Shown in pieces: positions 3,142 through 16,452 of a DNA stretch of 20,273 nucleotides. The translations under genes were made by a program, and so were the position numbers. The stretch comes from a virus. Every line of letters begins with the position of its first letter. The stretch's first letter is position 1. The DNA is taken from the IMG/VR virus record IMGVR_UViG_3300033074_002003. The stretch is one strand, 5' to 3'. Below the pieces are notes generated by a model. That model did no database searches. It was not told where the DNA came from and saw only the letters and a list, made by a program, of their open reading frames with translations.

Positions 3142-3224
3142 CGAGATGACGTGAGCGTGAGTAGCTCGTTGCAGTTGACGGGCTAGCTCACGTCCGTATG
3201 AAGCAGGATAGAGAGGGTCGAGAC

Positions 3225-3536
3225 ATGGCACAGGTTCTTCACGTCACTGACGATGACATCGCGGACATTCGCCGGACGAGCAGGTCGCTGATCAAGTTCG
3301 GCGCGACGTGGTGCGGGCCCTGCAAGCTGATGGATCCGAAGTTCGAGGAGGTCGCGCTCGAGTGCACCTCACCCGCGAAGTTCTTCTCTGTCGACGTGGA
3401 CGAGTGCCCACAGCTCTCGAAGGTTTTCGGTATCAGGGGCGTCCCGACGATTGTGGTCGTCGAGGGAAATGACGAGGTCGCCCGCCTCGTGGGAAATGTC
3501 TCGAAGGAGAAGATCGTGGCGCTGTGCCGCGAGTGA
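3225..3536 (+). CDS. trx: thioredoxin
   Basis: Canonical WCGPC active site (FGATWCGPCKLMDP) and a thioredoxin-like length. Start set at the second ATG, 3225, after GAGAGGGTCGAGAC. The listed ORF starts at 3198. Confidence 0.7.
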   Translation: MAQVLHVTDDDIADIRRTSRSLIKFGATWCGPCKLMDPKFEEVALECTSPAKFFSVDVDECPQLSKVFGIRGVPTIVVVEGNDEVARLVGNVSKEKIVALCRE

Positions 3537-4169: not shown

Positions 4170-4219
4170 TGGGCGCCCAGGTGGGAACCACCACGGTCAC
4201 GAATTCGGGCGCCCGATTT
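4170..4219 (+). terminator. spacer hairpin: two copies of the palindromic octamer GGGCGCCC (4170-4177 and 4207-4214) can pair across a 29-nt loop, followed by GATTTT
   Basis: Seen directly. Sits between tRNA-Leu and tRNA-Asn. Could be a terminator or an RNA processing structure. Confidence 0.3.
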
Positions 4220-4292
4220 TGGGAGGTATCATAACTGGCAATGATGCGAACTGTTAATTCGTAGTATGCAGGTTCGAATCCTGCCCTCCCAG
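4220..4292 (+). tRNA. tRNA-Asn(GTT), 73 nt
   Basis: Acceptor TGGGAGG/CCTCCCA. D-stem TCAT/ATGA with loop AACTGGCA. Anticodon stem GCGAA/TTCGT with loop CTGTTAA. T-arm GCAGG-TTCGAAT-CCTGC. Confidence 0.75.
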
Positions 4293-4394
4293 CCCACTGT
4301 CCCGTGAAACGGACACCATCTTGCTCGTAGTTCGGTCAAACGGAAAGGGTTCACGTCTTGTTACGTAATGTTTCGTGTTGTGTAATATGTCTAC

Positions 4395-5048
4395 ATGGAC
4401 AACACGAAACGCTACATCTACTTCATTGTCAATCGCATAAACTCTAAACGATACGTTGGACAAACACGTGATTATGTAAAAAGATCTAAGCAACATTTTT
4501 CTGAGGGCAAGAAGGGTAGAAAACGACATCCACTCTACGATTCCATGTTTTCACACGGGATCGAAAATTTCGAATTTGTTGTGATACAAGAGTGTTGCGA
4601 AAATGACGTTGATGAGTGTGAGATAGCGTGGATTAAAGCATTGTGCACTCGTGATAGAAGATTTGGATACAATCTTACGCCGGGTGGTAGTGCAATGTCG
4701 AGTTGTGTCTATGAGAAAATTTCAAAATCAATGTCTGGTAGACATTTCACACCCGAACACAAGGCAAAAATAGCTCAAGCGTTGAGAGGACAAAAGAGAC
4801 CTCCTTTGAAAGTTGAGCACGTTGAAAAGATAAGAAAATTCAACTTAGAGTCGCCGCCCTTTGCGGGTAAAACTCATACTGTTGAAACGCGTGAGAAAAT
4901 ACGTTGCGCAAATTCCAAATTGACGCGTGAAATCGTGAAAGTGATTCGCGAAGAATTCAATAATGGAACATCTCGTAAAGAGCTTGCACAAAAATATCAG
5001 GTTTCGTATAGTGCAATCAAGAATATCGTTGCAGGTAGACGCTGGTGA
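4395..5048 (+). CDS. GIY-YIG homing endonuclease (I-TevI-like, with NUMOD-type repeats)
   Basis: N-terminal RYIYFIVNRINSKRYVGQT with the GIY-YIG signature, Arg (CTRDRRFGYN) and Glu. C-terminal repeated SGRHFTPEHKAKIAQA and GKTHTVETREKIR NUMOD3-like motifs and an HTH-like tail. AT-rich island directly after the tRNA array. Confidence 0.75.
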   Translation: MDNTKRYIYFIVNRINSKRYVGQTRDYVKRSKQHFSEGKKGRKRHPLYDSMFSHGIENFEFVVIQECCENDVDECEIAWIKALCTRDRRFGYNLTPGGSAMSSCVYEKISKSMSGRHFTPEHKAKIAQALRGQKRPPLKVEHVEKIRKFNLESPPFAGKTHTVETREKIRCANSKLTREIVKVIREEFNNGTSRKELAQKYQVSYSAIKNIVAGRRW

Positions 5049-5085
5049 ACAAGCGTCACCTCCGATGTAGCTATTCTAGGGTGCC

Positions 5086-5421
5086 ATGAGTTACTATTCG
5101 ACCGTCGAGCTCATTCGCATAATCGGAAGTGATCCGTTTGTGGCATGGGCGCGCAAGTGCGAAGAGTGTGGGGGTCGCCTCGTGCTGCGCAGGGACGTCG
5201 AGGTTCGCTACATGGAGCGCACGAAAGACTGCAAGGGCAAGTGGGTCTGGATCTCACACAGGGGCAACAAGCGCGGGAGGAAGCGAGTCCTCGAGAAGTG
5301 CTACCTGAAGCAGTGCGCGGCCTGCGGCGAGAGGACAGAGGACGCCTGGTGTATGATCAGGAACGCAGAAGCGAGCGATCACTACCGCACAGAACGGGAG
5401 GGTGCCGGCTATGAGTTTTAG
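5086..5421 (+). CDS. small zinc-ribbon protein, paralog 1 of 4 (two CxxC pairs)
   Basis: KCEECGGRLVLRR plus CAACGERTEDAWC. The ATGAGTT start is shared with the three downstream paralogs. GC-rich. Confidence 0.5.
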   Translation: MSYYSTVELIRIIGSDPFVAWARKCEECGGRLVLRRDVEVRYMERTKDCKGKWVWISHRGNKRGRKRVLEKCYLKQCAACGERTEDAWCMIRNAEASDHYRTEREGAGYEF

Positions 5422-5638
5422 CGCAGCAGTCGCCGCGATGCGCGCTCGCGGGACACGCGTATTCTCGAGGAGGAAGTGCCCGAACTGTGGCTACACACTC
5501 AGGCTGCACCGCGAGTCTTTTTACGACGAAGACATTGGCTACTACGAGCGCAAGTGGAGCAAGCTCTGTGGCTGGTGCGCCAGTATGTACTGCGATGCGT
5601 CAACTGACGTCAGAAATTCATATGAGAAGAGAGTATGA
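5411..5638 (+). CDS. small zinc-ribbon protein, paralog 2 of 4
   Basis: MSFSAAVAAMRARGTRVFSRRKCPNCGYTLRL plus CGWCASMYC. Start set at the second ATG, 5411, after the strong SD GGGAGGGTG. The track ORF starts at 5402. Overlaps the paralog 1 stop. Confidence 0.5.
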   Translation: MSFSAAVAAMRARGTRVFSRRKCPNCGYTLRLHRESFYDEDIGYYERKWSKLCGWCASMYCDASTDVRNSYEKRV

Positions 5639-5898
5639 GTTTCAGGCGTATTGTTCAGATTTTGAGGGACTGGAAGACAACAATATACTCTCGACGTCGC
5701 TGTACTTGTGGCGGTCTGCTTATCTTGCGTCGCAACATCAGAGCGTTCAGAAATCGTAGCAAGGGTGTGAAACAAATCGACCGCACTTTTTACAAGCGGT
5801 GTACCCGATGCAAGCAGGCGTTCGCAGATCCACAAACAGTCGTCATGAACGCCGAAGACACCAGACGTCGTTACAAGACGGGTGAGAAAGTAGGATGA
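5635..5898 (+). CDS. small zinc-ribbon protein, paralog 3 of 4
   Basis: MSFRRIVQIL..SRRRCTCGGLLILRR plus CTRCKQ. ATGA overlap with the upstream stop. Lower GC than paralogs 1 and 2. Confidence 0.5.
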   Translation: MSFRRIVQILRDWKTTIYSRRRCTCGGLLILRRNIRAFRNRSKGVKQIDRTFYKRCTRCKQAFADPQTVVMNAEDTRRRYKTGEKVG

Positions 5899-6137
5899 GT
5901 TTCCAGAGTGTCGTGAAGCTAATGAAAACGTACGGCGAACGCACTTTCTCGAGGAGGAAGTGTCAAGACTGCGGCCACCGCCTCGTCCTCCGAAAGGGCA
6001 GAGCGGTGATAAGAGTACGGCACTCAAACGGCACGTGTCGCGTGAACCGCAGCTTCTACATCAAAATTTGCGAGGGGTGTAAGATCGATGAAACTGACAT
6101 TCAGGTTCGCCTATTGAACAACCCAAATCAGAAATAA
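5895..6137 (+). CDS. small zinc-ribbon protein, paralog 4 of 4
   Basis: MSFQSVVKLMKTYGERTFSRRKCQDCGHRLVLRKGR plus CEGCK. ATGA overlap with the upstream stop. Confidence 0.5.
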   Translation: MSFQSVVKLMKTYGERTFSRRKCQDCGHRLVLRKGRAVIRVRHSNGTCRVNRSFYIKICEGCKIDETDIQVRLLNNPNQK

Positions 6138-6138
6138 C

Positions 6139-6211
6139 GCTGTCATAGCTCAGCTAGAAGAGCGCCACTTTGGTACAGTGGAGGCCGCCGGTGCGATTCC
6201 GGCTGACAGCT
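6139..6211 (+). tRNA. tRNA-Thr(GGT), 73 nt
   Basis: Acceptor GCTGTCA/TGACAGC. D-arm TAGCTCAGCTAGAAGAGC. Anticodon stem CCACT/AGTGG with loop TTGGTAC. T-stem GCCGG/CCGGC with loop TGCGATT. Confidence 0.65.
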
Positions 6212-6216
6212 CCAAT

Positions 6217-7393: not shown

Positions 7394-8272
7394 ATGCTTA
7401 GAACGTGTGATTATTGTGACTTGACTGATGACTTTAATAGCGTTCAATCTTGGGCAGCACACCGTTCGAATTGTATAAAAAATCCCAATCGAACAGCGAA
7501 GCTGGCGAGAATGAGTGAATCGGCAGCCAAAGTTTCACGTAAAATCCTTGCTTTGACGTGTAGTTGTGGTTCGCTATTTTCCATAGAAGTCACAGACGCT
7601 GAAATTACGCGTGGTGCACATAGACACTTCTGTTCGCGGCAATGTGCAAATCGTCGTCAGCATTCGTCTGAAACCAAACAGAAAATTTCGCAAAGTGTTT
7701 CCAGATTTTTTCCCGAATCTATTTCTGTCGAAGTTGAATGTGCCGAGTGCAAGCGTAAATTCGTTGGTAAAACAGGAAGAACGTGTTGTTCACAACAGTG
7801 CGCTCGCGTAATCAATAATCGAAAAAGAATGATTGCAGCACAGTTGCCAGAAACTAGAGCAAAGATCGCAGCGAAGACTTTAGAGGCTTATGCTAACGGT
7901 CGCGAACAGTGTGGTGGGCGAACGAAATGGTTTGATGTTTACACGCTTCGATACGGCAAAATTCGTGTGCAAGGGACGTATGAAGTTCGAGCGTGTCAAA
8001 TTCTTGACAAGATGCTTGCTTCTGGAGAATTGATCGCGTGGGAATATACACGAGCTAGATTTCCTTATGTAGACACGTCTGGCAAACAACGTATGTACAG
8101 ACCGGATTTCAAGCTTGTTTATCCTACACACGAAGAATTTGTTGAAACGAAGGGATTTTCAACACCAAATGACGAACGCAAATGGGAAGCTCTTCGTTTG
8201 TTGGGTCATCATTTGTCAGTGTGGCGTGAAGCTGATCTCAAACAACGTGAATCTAAAGAGCATATGTCCTGA
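7394..8272 (+). CDS. putative free-standing nuclease with a PD-(D/E)xK / Vsr-like (DUF559-like) C-terminal domain and two N-terminal Cys-rich C..CAR modules
   Basis: The C-terminal YEVRACQILD..WEYTRARFPY..YRPDFKLVYPTHEEFVETKG matches the PD..(D/E)xK arrangement. HFCSRQCANRRQ and TCCSQQCARVINNRK resemble the GRFCSKKCARAFS module of the two HNH genes. AT-rich island between tRNA-His and downstream genes. Confidence 0.5.
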   Translation: MLRTCDYCDLTDDFNSVQSWAAHRSNCIKNPNRTAKLARMSESAAKVSRKILALTCSCGSLFSIEVTDAEITRGAHRHFCSRQCANRRQHSSETKQKISQSVSRFFPESISVEVECAECKRKFVGKTGRTCCSQQCARVINNRKRMIAAQLPETRAKIAAKTLEAYANGREQCGGRTKWFDVYTLRYGKIRVQGTYEVRACQILDKMLASGELIAWEYTRARFPYVDTSGKQRMYRPDFKLVYPTHEEFVETKGFSTPNDERKWEALRLLGHHLSVWREADLKQRESKEHMS

Positions 8273-8284
8273 GAGGACACGACA

Positions 8285-8524
8285 ATGAACTGTTCGGTGG
8301 CGCTACGCAACACAATGGCAAACATCGCGCTCGATGCGTTCCCGTTCGCCACGGGCGCGTGGACAGACGGCGATCGCGTGGTCGTGTACGTTAGCGACGA
8401 CCACGACCTCACCGACCAGAGGTCAGGCGACGCGACGTTCAGGTTTCCGGAGTTCGACGGCGAGTCAGTGAGAGAAATTTCGAGGCCCGTCACCATCGAA
8501 TTCGTGAGACACTCGTTCACGTAG
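8285..8524 (+). CDS. hypothetical protein (79 aa)
   Basis: GAGAGGACACGACA precedes the ATG. High GC3. Confidence 0.45.
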   Translation: MNCSVALRNTMANIALDAFPFATGAWTDGDRVVVYVSDDHDLTDQRSGDATFRFPEFDGESVREISRPVTIEFVRHSFT

Positions 8525-8584
8525 CTTAATTGGTAAAGCACCGCATTTTGGCGGAGGCTGTGAGTTCGAATCTCATCGTGAACA
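8515..8584 (+). pseudogene. degenerate tRNA-like gene (70 nt) with a 4-bp anticodon stem and a 6-nt loop
   Basis: Acceptor GTTCACG/CGTGAAC is perfect. D-stem GCTT/AAGC. T-arm GTGAG-TTCGAAT-CTCAT. The anticodon arm is CCGC-ATTTTG-GCGG, which is 3 nt too short. Overlaps the stop of the 8285..8524 CDS. Confidence 0.35.
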
Positions 8585-8586
8585 CA

Positions 8587-9019: not shown

Positions 9020-9622
9020 ATGAAATGTGAACGCTGTCAAGTTGAACACAGTGGGACGTATGGTTCGGGAAGATTTTGCACAGTCAAGTGTGCGAGATCT
9101 TTTTCAACAGCGTCTACTTCTGAAAAACGTTCAGAGATCAACAAACGAGTATCAGCGACACTAACGCAACCGCCAAAAGTAGCGACCTGTTGCATGTGTA
9201 ACACGCGGTATGAAACGCGACATCAGCGTTCTACATGTTGTAGTAAAGAGTGTCGAAAAGCTCGTAAAGCTCAAGTACAACACAACGTAACTAGAGAACA
9301 AAGAATCGAATTGGGCATCAAGAGTTCCTTTGGCAAATATGTTCGAAATCCGACAAGTTTGTATGATTTGAGCAACCGAACAATCAGTAAGATTCTTACA
9401 AGACTCGGAATCGGGTGTTCTTTGTGTGGTTGGTCTGCTGGAAAGTGTGACATTCATCACATTCGTGGTCGGAAAATTGAAGAAGCAGACAGACACGAAA
9501 ATTTGGCCTACGTGTGTCCAAATTGTCACAGGCTGATTCACAACAAGAAAATCAAGATTGACAGTCTTGTATCACTTCAAGATCAGATTGGTGATCGCTG
9601 GAAAGAGCTCTATTACGGTTAA
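9020..9622 (+). CDS. HNH homing endonuclease, a paralog of 361..1080
   Basis: N-terminal MKCERCQVEHSGTYGSGRFCTVKCARSFS. HNH motif CDIHHIRGRKIEEADRHENLAYVCPNCHRLIHN. AT-rich. Confidence 0.75.
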   Translation: MKCERCQVEHSGTYGSGRFCTVKCARSFSTASTSEKRSEINKRVSATLTQPPKVATCCMCNTRYETRHQRSTCCSKECRKARKAQVQHNVTREQRIELGIKSSFGKYVRNPTSLYDLSNRTISKILTRLGIGCSLCGWSAGKCDIHHIRGRKIEEADRHENLAYVCPNCHRLIHNKKIKIDSLVSLQDQIGDRWKELYYG

Positions 9623-10570: not shown

Positions 10571-10657
10571 GGGAATCTAGCTCAAAGTCCGCGTCAGCGG
10601 GGGCAGAGCGGTCCGTTAGTAAGCGGACAGGTCCCGGTTCGAGCCCGGGGATTTCCT
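10571..10657 (+). tRNA. atypical 87-nt tRNA-like gene (perfect acceptor and T-arm, 8-nt anticodon-type loop TTAGTAAG, hairpin inserted in the D region)
   Basis: Acceptor GGGAATC/GATTTCC. T-arm CCCGG-TTCGAGC-CCGGG. Stem GTCCG/CGGAC closes an 8-nt loop. The D region GCTC...GAGC encloses an extra 5-bp hairpin, TCCGC-GTCA-GCGGG. Confidence 0.35.
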
Positions 10658-10661
10658 CAGA

Positions 10662-12283: not shown

Positions 12284-12600
12284 AGAAGAGGCAGCAGCAG
12301 TCGGGTCGTGGTCAGAGCAACGTGATCGAGTTCGAGCGTGTGGATGTCAATGACATCTGTTACGCCTCCGACGACGAGCTCTACCAGCTCTCGCACGAAC
12401 TTACTTCTGCCCGCGAGCGCGGGCGTGACCTCGATACCCGCGATGTGGAGATCGAGATCTGCTACGTGCAGCGCGAGAAGAAGATTCGCGCGGCTCGCAG
12501 GGAGGCTCACGAGCTGTACGTGCAGAACCTGCAGAACGAGAACGCCGCGCTGGGAAATGCGATGGCCCTCTCGCTCTCGCCCACCGAGGTGGCGAACTGA
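12280..12600 (+). CDS. hypothetical protein (106 aa)
   Basis: ATGA overlap with the upstream stop. High GC3. Coiled-coil-like. Confidence 0.5.
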   Translation: MKKRQQQSGRGQSNVIEFERVDVNDICYASDDELYQLSHELTSARERGRDLDTRDVEIEICYVQREKKIRAARREAHELYVQNLQNENAALGNAMALSLSPTEVAN

Positions 12601-13466
12601 TGACACACGTCAGGTCTTCGAAAAAGGGAGGACGCGGAAGGGTCGGAAAGAGCTCACTTCAGTGGGAGCAGGCAAAGAGGAAGTCGATTTCTTCGCTGGA
12701 GTGTGACACAGTGTCCTGGATGATGTCCAAGGCGGGCAAGATCCCGCTCCTCACTCACGACGAGAGCACCGAGCTTTTCAAGAAGCTCGAGGCGGGCGAC
12801 ACGCGCGTCCGCGAGAAGATCGTGAGCTCCAACCTGAAGCTCGTGATCTCCATCGCGAAGAAGTACAAGAAGCACACCGGCGTCGACTTCGAGGACCTCC
12901 TGCAGGAGGGCAACATCGGCCTCATGAAGGCGGTCGAGAAGTTCGATCACCGCCGCGGCTTCAGGTTCTCCACCTACGCGACGTGGTGGATCCGGCAGGC
13001 AGTCGGTCAGTTCGTCGCGAAGACGAGCCGGACGATCAGGCTTCCCGCACACGCGATCGGCGTCTCGCGCAAGATCGAGGACGTGAAGCGCGAGTACAGG
13101 GAGAAGTTCGGTGAGGAGCCCACCGAGGCGGACCTCTCTGAGATGATGGACGTCTCCGAGAGCATCATCAAGGCCGCTTCTCGAGGTGCCAGGCGGACGA
13201 TCTCGCTGTCCTCGCCCATCGATCGAGACTCTGACGGCGGAGACACCCTCGCGGACACGATCCCCGACACCTCTGCGGGTAGTAACCCGTTCGAGGCCTT
13301 CCTCGAGAAGGAGTCGTACCAGATCGTGAAGGAGTCGTTCGCGAAGCTCACTCCGAAAGAGGAACAGATCATCAGGCTCAGGTTCGGAATCTCTGATTCT
13401 ACGCCCGAGATGGAGATCAGCGAAGCCGAGGAGGAGGAGATCGCGCGGGCAGGAGGAGCACAGTGA
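12600..13466 (+). CDS. sigma-70 family RNA polymerase sigma factor (regions 2, 3 and 4.1 present; region 4.2 HTH absent)
   Basis: NLKLVISIAKKYKKHTGVDFEDLLQEGNIGLMKAVEKFDHRRGFRFSTYATWWIRQAV...RTIRLP is a near-consensus sigma-70 region 2.1-2.4. LTPKEEQIIRLRFGI is region 4.1. The ORF ends 24 aa later without the recognition HTH. TGATG overlap with the upstream gene. Confidence 0.8.
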   Translation: MTHVRSSKKGGRGRVGKSSLQWEQAKRKSISSLECDTVSWMMSKAGKIPLLTHDESTELFKKLEAGDTRVREKIVSSNLKLVISIAKKYKKHTGVDFEDLLQEGNIGLMKAVEKFDHRRGFRFSTYATWWIRQAVGQFVAKTSRTIRLPAHAIGVSRKIEDVKREYREKFGEEPTEADLSEMMDVSESIIKAASRGARRTISLSSPIDRDSDGGDTLADTIPDTSAGSNPFEAFLEKESYQIVKESFAKLTPKEEQIIRLRFGISDSTPEMEISEAEEEEIARAGGAQ

Positions 13467-14594: not shown

Positions 14595-15134
14595 ATGAGA
14601 TGCAAGTCTGATTTTCTCGGTCGCCTCTGTGCATACGAACCCGACGCGCTCGTACGATTCGGCGTCGGGAGGCGCGTCGGTTCCGGTCGAAGCGGCACTG
14701 TGTATGAGTCCGCCCGTGGGTGTGTCATCAAGGTGGCGTCAGCGGGAATCGAATTTTGGGACGAGATCGACGGGATCCTCTCGTACCTCAAGGACGTCAA
14801 GAACCCATCGGTGATGGACGTGAAGGAGTACCACTTCATCGGATCTGACGCGTCTGACGTGCTCTACTGCCTCATCTCGGAGCGGCTTCACCCGATCGAC
14901 AATGACGACGAGGGCGAATTTGCCTGTGCTGTTGTCGACGACGTGTGGAACCCAGAGAACGTGCCAGACGAGACTCGGGCCGACCCGCGCTGGCACTCGC
15001 GCCCTTTCGAGGAGCTCAGGAAAAATCTCAGGGCGCTCCCATATGTCCACAAGGACATTCACTGGGGGAATATCATGAAGGACTGTTTCGGAAACTACAA
15101 GCTCATCGATGTGGAGGCTTTCAATGTCACGTGA
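14595..15134 (+). CDS. minimal Hanks-type (eukaryotic-like) protein kinase-like protein, about 180 aa, lacking the activation segment/C-lobe
   Basis: Gly-rich loop GVGRRVGSGRSGTVYE. VIKV, the beta3 Lys. HKDIHWGNIM (an HRDxxxxN-like catalytic loop). KLIDVE (DFG-like). Start set at ATG 14595. The track ORF starts at 14490 inside tRNA-Cys. Confidence 0.55.
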   Translation: MRCKSDFLGRLCAYEPDALVRFGVGRRVGSGRSGTVYESARGCVIKVASAGIEFWDEIDGILSYLKDVKNPSVMDVKEYHFIGSDASDVLYCLISERLHPIDNDDEGEFACAVVDDVWNPENVPDETRADPRWHSRPFEELRKNLRALPYVHKDIHWGNIMKDCFGNYKLIDVEAFNVT

Positions 15135-16452
15135 TGTCATCCGCGCATTTGCGACGCTTCTTGCGCTCGAGGGCGCACAGGGATCGAACGCGAAGAAGGC
15201 GCTGCTCGAGGCAGAGTTCGACAACGAGGCCCTTCGCGACCTCGTATTTGCCGCGTACGGCGGCGATGTGTACGGGTCGTATTCGACGCTGAAGTTCGAC
15301 GACGAAGAAGGGCCCGCACCGTCGCCAGAGCGCTTCGATGACTTCTTCGCGATGCTGAAGCGCCTCGCTCGCCGTGAGGTGACGGGCGACGCAGCCGTTG
15401 CAGAGATCGACGCGTTCATCGGCGGCTGCAACGTCACCGAGAAGAAGTGGTACAGGCGTGTGATCGACCACGACCTGAAGGTCGGTTGCAACAAGAGGAC
15501 GTTCTCGAAGGTCTGGGACTTCAAGTCGCTCGCGCTCGGCGGCGACGTGAAGGACATAGCGGACGTCACCTTCCCGGGCGTCATGCTGTGTGAACCGAAG
15601 GAGAAGTACGTCGCGAAGTTCACAGGCGATCTCCTCGTCGAACCGAAGCTCGATGGCCTGCGCCTCGTCTTCGTGTGGGAGGGCCGTGACAAGTGGTCTT
15701 TCTTCTCGCGATCGGGGAAGAATGACAGGTACAACGACAACCTGAAGCACATTGCGGCGAACCTCGTGGGCGCGATGCACGTCTGTGGCTGGCGCAAGGG
15801 AATCATCGACGGCGAGGTGATGGGTGAGACGTGGAACAGCACGCTCGCCGTGAAGCGCAAGGAGCTCACCGCACAGGACCTCGAGGAGATCGCCCGCTGC
15901 AAGTTCCACGCGTTCGATCACCTCACTGGCCCGGACGACGTGCGACCGCAGCACAAGAGACGGGCGACGCTCGCGGGGATCTGCGGGCACATCGAGTCTA
16001 ACTACGCGGGTTCGAAGGTGACGCTCGTGCCGCAGACGCGGGTGAAGTCGCTCGAAGAGGCCCGGGCGCTCTTCAACACGTTCCTCACACAGGGGTACGA
16101 GGGCGCGATCGTGAAGGACTCGGACGCTGTCTACAAGTTCGACAACAAGCGCTCGAAGCTCTGGATCAAGATCAAGCCCGTCGACACACAGGACGTTCGC
16201 GTCACCGGATTCTATCCCGGGAAGGAGCGCACGAAGTACGAGGGCACTCTCGGGGGCTTCAACGTGATCGACGCGGGCGGGCAGGAGTTCAATGTCGGCG
16301 GCGGGTTCACCGACGCACAGCGGAACGCCTTCTGGGAGGGCCGCGAGGGGTACGTGGGCAAGTACTGTGAGATCGAGTTCCAACCCGATCCCGCACAGGT
16401 CGCAAAGGGAAGGTTTCCGGTATTCATTCGCTGGCGGGAGGACTTGGAGTGA
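15124..16452 (+). CDS. lig: ATP-dependent DNA ligase
   Basis: Nucleotidyltransferase motifs: I EPKLDGLRL (KxDGxR), III IIDGEVM, IV EGAIVKD, V LWIKIKP. C-terminal OB-like GKYCEIEFQ...RFPVFIRWREDLE. GGAGG 6 nt upstream of ATG 15124. Overlaps the kinase stop. Confidence 0.8.
   Translation: MSRDVIRAFATLLALEGAQGSNAKKALLEAEFDNEALRDLVFAAYGGDVYGSYSTLKFDDEEGPAPSPERFDDFFAMLKRLARREVTGDAAVAEIDAFIGGCNVTEKKWYRRVIDHDLKVGCNKRTFSKVWDFKSLALGGDVKDIADVTFPGVMLCEPKEKYVAKFTGDLLVEPKLDGLRLVFVWEGRDKWSFFSRSGKNDRYNDNLKHIAANLVGAMHVCGWRKGIIDGEVMGETWNSTLAVKRKELTAQDLEEIARCKFHAFDHLTGPDDVRPQHKRRATLAGICGHIESNYAGSKVTLVPQTRVKSLEEARALFNTFLTQGYEGAIVKDSDAVYKFDNKRSKLWIKIKPVDTQDVRVTGFYPGKERTKYEGTLGGFNVIDAGGQEFNVGGGFTDAQRNAFWEGREGYVGKYCEIEFQPDPAQVAKGRFPVFIRWREDLE

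Follow-up and report, generated by a model that had tools for sequence, protein, structure and literature searches.

Phage tRNA arrays are usually viewed in terms of codon usage or of escape from tRNA-targeting defences, and the small proteins interleaved in them are ignored. A described small zinc protein with which such genes can be compared is PylSn, a compact basic single-zinc domain of ~90 residues that docks on the elbow (T-loop and variable loop) of tRNA-Pyl and that in bacteria is a separate, free-standing small protein (PMC11467909). Here, four consecutive genes, designated P1–P4, at positions 5086–6137 of a 20,273-nt stretch of viral DNA (IMG/VR record IMGVR_UViG_3300033074_002003; the whole stretch is referred to below as the window) were compared with one another, with related loci and with known zinc proteins. 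The genes lie within a tRNA array and, as judged from their sequences, arose by tandem duplication. They encode a family of small and strongly basic proteins that is restricted to one lineage and predicted to consist of single-zinc ribbons.

Four tandem paralogs and their predicted fold

P1 (5086–5421; 111 amino acids, aa), P2 (5411–5638; 75 aa), P3 (5635–5898; 87 aa) and P4 (5895–6137; 80 aa) are adjacent and co-oriented on the + strand, share a common architecture and are significantly similar to one another, as characterises a tandem array. BLASTP between the paralogs gave E-values of 8e-11 for P2/P4, 1e-8 for P1/P4 and 3e-12 for P3/P4. A family hidden Markov model (HMM) recognised each of P1–P4 at E ≤ 1e-27, while every other six-frame open reading frame (ORF) of the window gave E > 2, so that over 25 orders of magnitude separate the two groups. 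This similarity vastly exceeds chance and indicates that the four genes are tandem-duplicated paralogs. The rest of the window and the ±10 kb regions of its relatives yielded no further paralogs.

The family consensus consists of an N-terminal helix (MSFxSxVxLMR), a first Cys knuckle (SRRKC-x1-2-CG-x2-L-x-L), a variable hairpin, a second knuckle (CxxC) and a D-x6-N tail. Across 13 family members, M1, S2, the four Cys, the Gly after knuckle 1, the Lys before knuckle 2, and the Asp and Asn after knuckle 2 are invariant. The two knuckles are CEEC (5158–5169) and CAAC (5314–5325) in P1, CPNC (5477–5488) and CGWC (5567–5578) in P2, C-T-C (5701–5709) and CTRC (5800–5811) in P3, and CQDC (5961–5972) and CEGC (6069–6080) in P4. 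Between the knuckles, from the final Cys of the first to the initial Cys of the second, the spacing is 27 residues in P2, 31 in P3, 33 in P4 and 49 in P1, the last value being due to a 17-residue insertion between the knuckles.

AlphaFold2 models of P4 and P1 (predicted local distance difference test scores, pLDDT, of 78 and 72, respectively) were built from a shallow family alignment and are of moderate confidence. They have a common scaffold of a helix at residues 3–12, knuckle 1, a long β-hairpin, knuckle 2 and a short C-terminal helix. Strands are predicted at residues 29–43 and 46–59 of P4 and at 31–47, 53–58 and 65–77 of P1, in which the hairpin is longer by one strand. The two Cys knuckles with four candidate zinc ligands, together with the modelled hairpin between them, are those of the zinc-ribbon fold class. 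The proteins are strongly basic, with isoelectric points (pI) of 8.5–11.4 (11.4 for P3) and 14–24 Lys and Arg residues each.

All four genes start with ATGAGTT. The end of P1 and the start of P2 overlap by 11 nt (5411–5421, + strand; TATGAGTTTTAG (ATGAGTTTTAG)), and the P2/P3 and P3/P4 junctions are ATGA stop/start overlaps (5635–5638 and 5895–5898, + strand). No + strand terminator-like site was found in 5000–6200 and thus none between P1 and the tRNA-Thr(GGT) gene (6139–6214, + strand), which is separated from the P4 stop by a single base. Translation of the paralogs may be coupled on a single message within the pre-tRNA transcript, in which case they would be made together and simultaneously with the phage tRNAs.

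A first-pass annotation of this DNA had described four consecutive small zinc-ribbon paralogs with identical starts and three stop/start overlaps, and this description is borne out by the BLASTP values, by the invariance of the four Cys in the 13 members, by the modelled hairpin between the knuckles and by the junctions. Other details required adjustment. The length range of 78–111 aa is correct at its upper end, whereas P2, the shortest member, reaches 78 aa only with an upstream GTG at 5402. The motif SRRKC-x2-CG, attributed to all four proteins, was confirmed with a literal SRRKC in P2 and P4 only, P1 having ARKC and P3 having SRRRC with a C-T-C first knuckle. Likewise, a second CxxC ~30–40 residues further on describes P3 and P4, P2 falling below this range and P1 above it.

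A 17-nt stretch, TTCTCGAGGAGGAAGTG, which encodes FSRRKC, is present as exact copies in P2 (5462–5478, + strand) and P4 (5946–5962, + strand), although the proteins are ~31% identical. It contains two AGG Arg codons that form an AGGAGG Shine-Dalgarno-like site. Neither copy has changed in four lineages (those of the window and of the related contigs L001, L015 and L017), compared with a synonymous divergence of 0.2–0.9 elsewhere, which suggests nucleotide-level constraint or gene conversion. ORFs in alternative frames after the internal AGGAGG (5476–5607 and 5960–6082) were considered as genes and rejected, their products being unrelated to each other.

Lineage comparison, selection and distribution of the family

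The frames of all four genes are intact in eight near-identical strains, with 2–5 single-nucleotide polymorphisms (SNPs) per 1053 nt. Between more distant lineages, the synonymous divergence (dS) is 0.2–0.9, and the ratio of nonsynonymous to synonymous divergence (dN/dS) is 0.1–0.3 for the P1, P2, P3a (see below) and P4 orthologs, being 0.09–0.22 for P1 orthologs in L001, L015 and L018 and 0.13–0.30 for P2. These values indicate that the genes are real and under purifying selection overall. The constraint is distributed unevenly along the proteins. The pooled ratio of nonsynonymous to synonymous polymorphism (pN/pS) is 0.13 in the N-terminal helix and knuckle, 0.23 in the C-terminal part and 0.39 in the hairpin. 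In P4, the hairpin has a pN/pS of 0.7–1.1, as compared with mostly 0.00–0.24 in the N- and C-terminal parts, the exception being one closely related pair with 0.97 in the N-terminal part; relaxed and positive selection on the hairpin are indistinguishable at these small counts.

P3 and/or P4 are missing from the public gene calls of contigs L007, L008 and L010–L014, and a GTG-start P4 is uncalled in L001 (10553–10795); the frames are intact. The calls were probably skipped because of atypical composition and, in L001, the GTG start. Protein databases therefore under-represent the family. Pseudogenisation, considered in view of the skipped calls, was ruled out by the intact frames and the low SNP counts given above. 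In P2 of the window, the sequence ..CASMYCDAS.. replaces ..CARMYYDAS.. found in all eight near-identical strains (positions 5582 and 5592; codons 58 and 61). Cys61 occurs only in this window and does not belong to the conserved ligands.

P1, P2 and P4 are orthologous across lineages, the window and L001 being ~90% identical at the nucleotide level. The third slot is non-orthologous and is occupied by four distinct types in arrays of four or five genes. P3w (87 aa, C-x-C in knuckle 1) is the type of the window lineage. P3' (106 aa, CxxC) is found in L001–L006, where it is followed by a short spacer and the GTG-start P4, and matches P3w at about half of the aligned bases. P3a (92–93 aa) and P3b (100 aa) also have C-x-C in knuckle 1 (C-P-C and C-A-C, respectively); P3a is present in L015–L019 (93 aa in L016–L019), and P3b only in L015, in which it lies alongside P3a and brings the array to five genes. 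Between P3w and P3a, dN is 0.55 and dS is saturated. This comparison of the slots indicates that the family grew by tandem duplication, with the middle position as a cassette hot spot.

The GC content of P1–P4 is 0.59, 0.55, 0.49 and 0.50, respectively, and their GC content at third codon positions (GC3) is 0.77, 0.67, 0.52 and 0.65, as compared with 0.69–0.84 in the other non-endonuclease genes of the window and 0.34–0.38 in its homing endonucleases. The third-slot genes have the lowest GC3 and are the AT-richest part of the array in every lineage.

The family was found only in one phage lineage. Word-indexed searches of 5.8 billion proteins with family profiles returned only the types described above, from the same lineage, and an exhaustive HMMER search of 1.84 billion cluster representatives (1.84e9) likewise gave this lineage only. 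Searches of 50,697 phage records with the array by tblastn and megablast gave no match, scans of IMG/VR with P4, P1 and the 17-mer gave chance matches only, and a pattern scan of JGI metagenomes gave none. In Pfam, PHROGs, NCBIfam and PADLOC, searched with single proteins and with all 13 members, only sub-threshold generic zinc-ribbon matches were obtained. A literature search on zinc ribbons within phage tRNA clusters retrieved no relevant report. As far as these searches extend, P1–P4 represent an orphan family, new and very narrowly distributed, of which only a few distinct sequences were obtained, all of them from a single metagenomic lineage of phages.

These results also bear on the origin of the genes as proposed in the first-pass annotation. 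Serial duplication with divergence agrees with the tandem paralogy and the conserved Cys. Acquisition at different times is partly supported by the third slot, with its non-orthologous, AT-rich occupants in arrays that are ~90% identical elsewhere. The contrast between GC-rich P1 and P2 and markedly AT-richer P3 and P4 is a real gradient, yet only a moderate one. The term 'diversifying' was an overstatement in view of the purifying selection on the orthologs. The statement that no characterised family could be recognised stands, as no library match reached a cutoff; profile searches did not place the proteins in a housekeeping family, and the Cys pairs are conserved in homologs.

Surroundings in the tRNA array

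The 20.3-kb window is a phage-like tRNA array with 26 tRNA genes, all on the + strand (ARAGORN), of which 22 were confirmed by Rfam, and with protein genes interspersed between them across its length. In every lineage, the paralog array is flanked by tRNA-Asn(GTT) (4219–4296, + strand, in the window) upstream and tRNA-Thr(GGT) downstream, the P4 stop lying 1–2 bases before the latter. DNA-level relatives were not found by megablast among the 50,697 phage records. The close relatives of the window are metagenomic contigs of 11–70 kb, one source record being labelled 'aquatic metagenome'. Since there is no close relative among the sequenced phages, the window belongs to a lineage of large phages, not described before, that has at least 30 tRNAs.

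The interval from tRNA-Asn to P1 contains a low-GC GIY-YIG/NUMOD3 homing endonuclease gene (4395–5048, + strand), which is not a family member. The window lineage and L015 have this gene, and L001 lacks it. Two HNH homing-type endonuclease genes (256–1080 and 9020–9622) and a further homing-type endonuclease gene (7394–8272) complete a set of four low-GC islands (GC 0.40–0.44, with the low GC3 given above). The presence of endonucleases differs among related contigs, and the tRNA array is a hot spot for them. The endonuclease at 4395–5048 sits where L001 has a second tRNA-Asn(GTT) copy (L001 9548–9625). When window positions 4297–5085 were compared with L001 9523–9675, the window was found to keep only about the first 10 nt of that copy (TTGCTCGTAG), homology restarting at GTGAACAA just before P1. 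The endonuclease gene appears to have been inserted in place of a tRNA gene.

Other protein genes of the window include a thioredoxin gene interleaved in the tRNA array (3198–3536), a sigma-70 family gene (Sigma70_r2/r3; 12600–13466, 288-aa product) 6.5 kb downstream of the paralogs, and a gene for an ATP-dependent DNA ligase (15109–16452) that is 29% identical to SPO1-group ligases. Three tRNA-like genes (90–164, 8515–8585 and 10571–10658) have abnormal anticodon loops according to ARAGORN, two with a 2-base 'anticodon' and one with a 4-base 'agcg' that is conserved in L001 (17102–17189). The second of these scores 60 bits as a tRNA in Rfam (8515–8584). These genes may be unusual or frameshift-type tRNAs, or mis-folds. 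The 'tmRNA' reported by ARAGORN at L001 4928–5241 spans three ordinary tRNA genes (Gln, Gln and Ala) and is almost certainly a false positive.

Mode of action and comparison with known zinc proteins

The best explanation, put forward tentatively, is that the paralogs are basic nucleic-acid binders, RNA or tRNA being the first choice, with a variable hairpin. The conserved basic face formed by the helix and the knuckles would bind a common polyanionic partner, most likely nucleic acid, the target of each paralog would be set individually by the variable hairpin, and the third slot would be exchanged as a cassette among related phages. In favour of this explanation are the invariant Cys and other conserved positions, the modelled fold, the high positive charge, the purifying selection (tightest on the N-terminal helix and knuckle and loosest on the hairpin) and the location between tRNA genes on a stretch free of terminator-like sites. 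In a further, improbable reading, the paralogs are PylSn-like proteins that bind the tRNA elbow, i.e. free-standing tRNA 'readers' made with the ~30 tRNAs of the phage, the hairpin of each being directed to a tRNA subset. Such readers might protect the phage tRNAs against anticodon nucleases of the host, label phage versus host tRNAs, or sequester host tRNAs, and the swappable third slot would then adapt the set to different hosts.

The one lead to a known protein is PylSn, toward which several comparisons point. The best match of the family profile in the PDB was 5ud5_A, the tRNA-binding N-terminal domain of PylRS, at E 0.0022, followed by eL34 (0.028) and Rpp21 (0.59). Alignment to the PylSn alignment with hhalign gave a probability of 74% (P 2.9e-5 over 58 columns), with SR.K, CG..L, Y.K.C..C and D paired, and the reversed-profile control gave 0.2%. 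A word-indexed search for more diverse bacterial PylSn, meant to refine this profile comparison, returned only Methanosarcina-type sequences. When columns were shuffled with the knuckles fixed, scores of 12.9 ± 2.6 (maximum 20) were obtained as compared with the observed 32.5, which none of 150 shuffles reached. Reciprocally, a PylSn HMM placed P4 orthologs first among 2378 six-frame ORFs of all loci. In addition, PylSn binds tRNA, and the phage genes lie among tRNA genes.

Other evidence weighs against a tRNA-binding role and against kinship with PylSn. No similarity match is significant at database scale. The E-value of 0.0022 is barely above noise because the reversed family profile reaches 0.0089 in the PDB, the real one being only about four-fold better, and the pairwise hhalign P fails correction for choosing the best of the PDB. 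Single paralogs match other ribbons (RPB12, Nop10 and C2H2 fingers) instead of PylSn, at noise level. With the TIGR03912 model, P4 scores 12.9 bits (E 0.11) against a cutoff of 51.15, and only three of the 13 members match at all (best E 0.01). The predicted fold does not match chain A of PDB 5UD5. The zinc site also differs: with ligands read from alignment invariants only, PylSn has C42, C69, C72, H24 and H28, whereas the phage family has four Cys, the first pair being an adjacent CxxC or CxC. As only three Cys are invariant in PylSn, its fourth ligand cannot be a conserved Cys. PylSn further carries additional residues ahead of the CG motif and is without the long hairpin of the phage family. 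Neither pyl genes (pylSc, pylBCD) nor a class II synthetase were found among the precomputed Pfam families given for the genes called within ±10 kb in related loci or among the 15 window proteins scanned, and no tRNA with a CUA anticodon (pylT) was found in the window. For basic zinc ribbons, DNA and proteins are equally possible partners. Weak matches to RNA binders are expected anyway, since zinc ribbons in the PDB are mostly RNA-associated (ribosomes, polymerases), and the position in the tRNA array is weak evidence because unrelated genes, namely the thioredoxin and four homing endonucleases, are found there too. By the sub-cutoff score, the fold mismatch, the differing zinc site and the lack of pyl genes nearby, the family does not qualify as PylSn. 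The resemblance is retained as a hypothesis about the mode of action.

A possible if doubtful reading is a role in host takeover or anti-defence, as already suggested in the first-pass annotation, through binding to proteins of the host. The scaffold would display a variable hairpin with which each paralog would block a different defence or housekeeping protein of the host, and the array would diversify in an arms race. An orphan family confined to one phage lineage would fit this role, as would the near-neutral or faster evolution of the P4 hairpin between mostly conserved flanks, the four non-orthologous types and the copy number of 4 or 5 among arrays that elsewhere are ~90% identical, and a neighbourhood full of mobile accessory genes. 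However, the P1, P2, P3a and P4 orthologs are clearly under purifying selection overall, and so high a positive charge is more typical of nucleic-acid binders. The libraries gave no credible counterpart: the sole match in PADLOC-DB, which models defence and not anti-defence proteins, was a spurious one to Cas10 (E 0.021, one member), and predicted viral structures gave only sub-threshold, differently annotated matches. This null result weighs little because those libraries contain few anti-defence proteins. The explanations are not mutually exclusive, since proteins that guard tRNA from the anticodon nucleases of the host would combine RNA binding with anti-defence.

Less is to be said for the paralogs as transcription regulators that bind DNA or RNA polymerase, like P2 Ogr and P4 Delta, and act at different promoters or stages. 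This is unlikely, even though basic zinc ribbons would suit such a function and the phage has a sigma-70 family gene of its own 6.5 kb further on: the sub-threshold matches to DNA-binding ribbons that favour it (Zn_ribbon_Top1 in four of the 13 members, best E 0.008; the PriA CRR; a recombinase ribbon) are all at noise level, and among the 13 members Pfam gave no match to Ogr_Delta (PF04606) and only one, at E 0.073, to Com (PF10122). No recurring DNA motif was noted, no search aimed at one having been made. The proximity of the GIY-YIG homing endonuclease and the atypical composition of P3 and P4, often uncalled in public contigs, would be expected of decaying, non-functional duplicates or mobile-element debris, such as endonuclease-associated DNA-binding modules, persisting in a recombination hot spot. 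The proteins do not resemble the endonucleases, and such an origin is essentially excluded, being largely refuted by the frames intact in every strain examined, the invariant Cys ligands and the low dN/dS.

Whichever partner is bound, the sequences point to a selected set of zinc-ribbon paralogs at one fixed position of a tRNA array, in which the scaffold is constant and one member is exchangeable. Should tRNA be their target, the proteins would form a class of tRNA-handling factors new to phages, and the PylSn tRNA-binding domain would have its first relatives beyond pyrrolysine systems. Should host proteins be the target, the family would provide a compact, naturally diversified scaffold for anti-host functions. 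The tRNA-binding idea is currently weak and is testable.

Among phage proteins, Com of phage Mu and Ogr and Delta of P2 and P4 are likewise small Cys4 zinc proteins, with nucleic acid or RNA polymerase as the means of their action; Com, which binds mom mRNA, activates the translation of that message. They differ from P1–P4 in Cys spacing and length, and are encoded by single-copy genes and not by tandem families. Lar-type restriction alleviation proteins are also small, zinc-ribbon-like phage accessory proteins. Two of them were among the Foldseek matches in BFVD, which were not significant (E 0.2–0.26, template modelling score ~0.39), and no Pfam sequence similarity was found. The generic zinc ribbons whose sub-threshold matches recur (Zn_ribbon_Top1, PF01396; RPB12/RPABC4; archaeal Nop10; eL34) have, like the phage family, two Cys knuckles around a β-hairpin and the pattern K-C-x2-C-G-x2-L, and many of them bind nucleic acids. 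They gave no match at any curated cutoff and lack the N-terminal helix and the D-x6-N tail, and the putatively translationally coupled array of 4–5 genes is a feature of the phage family and not of generic zinc ribbons.

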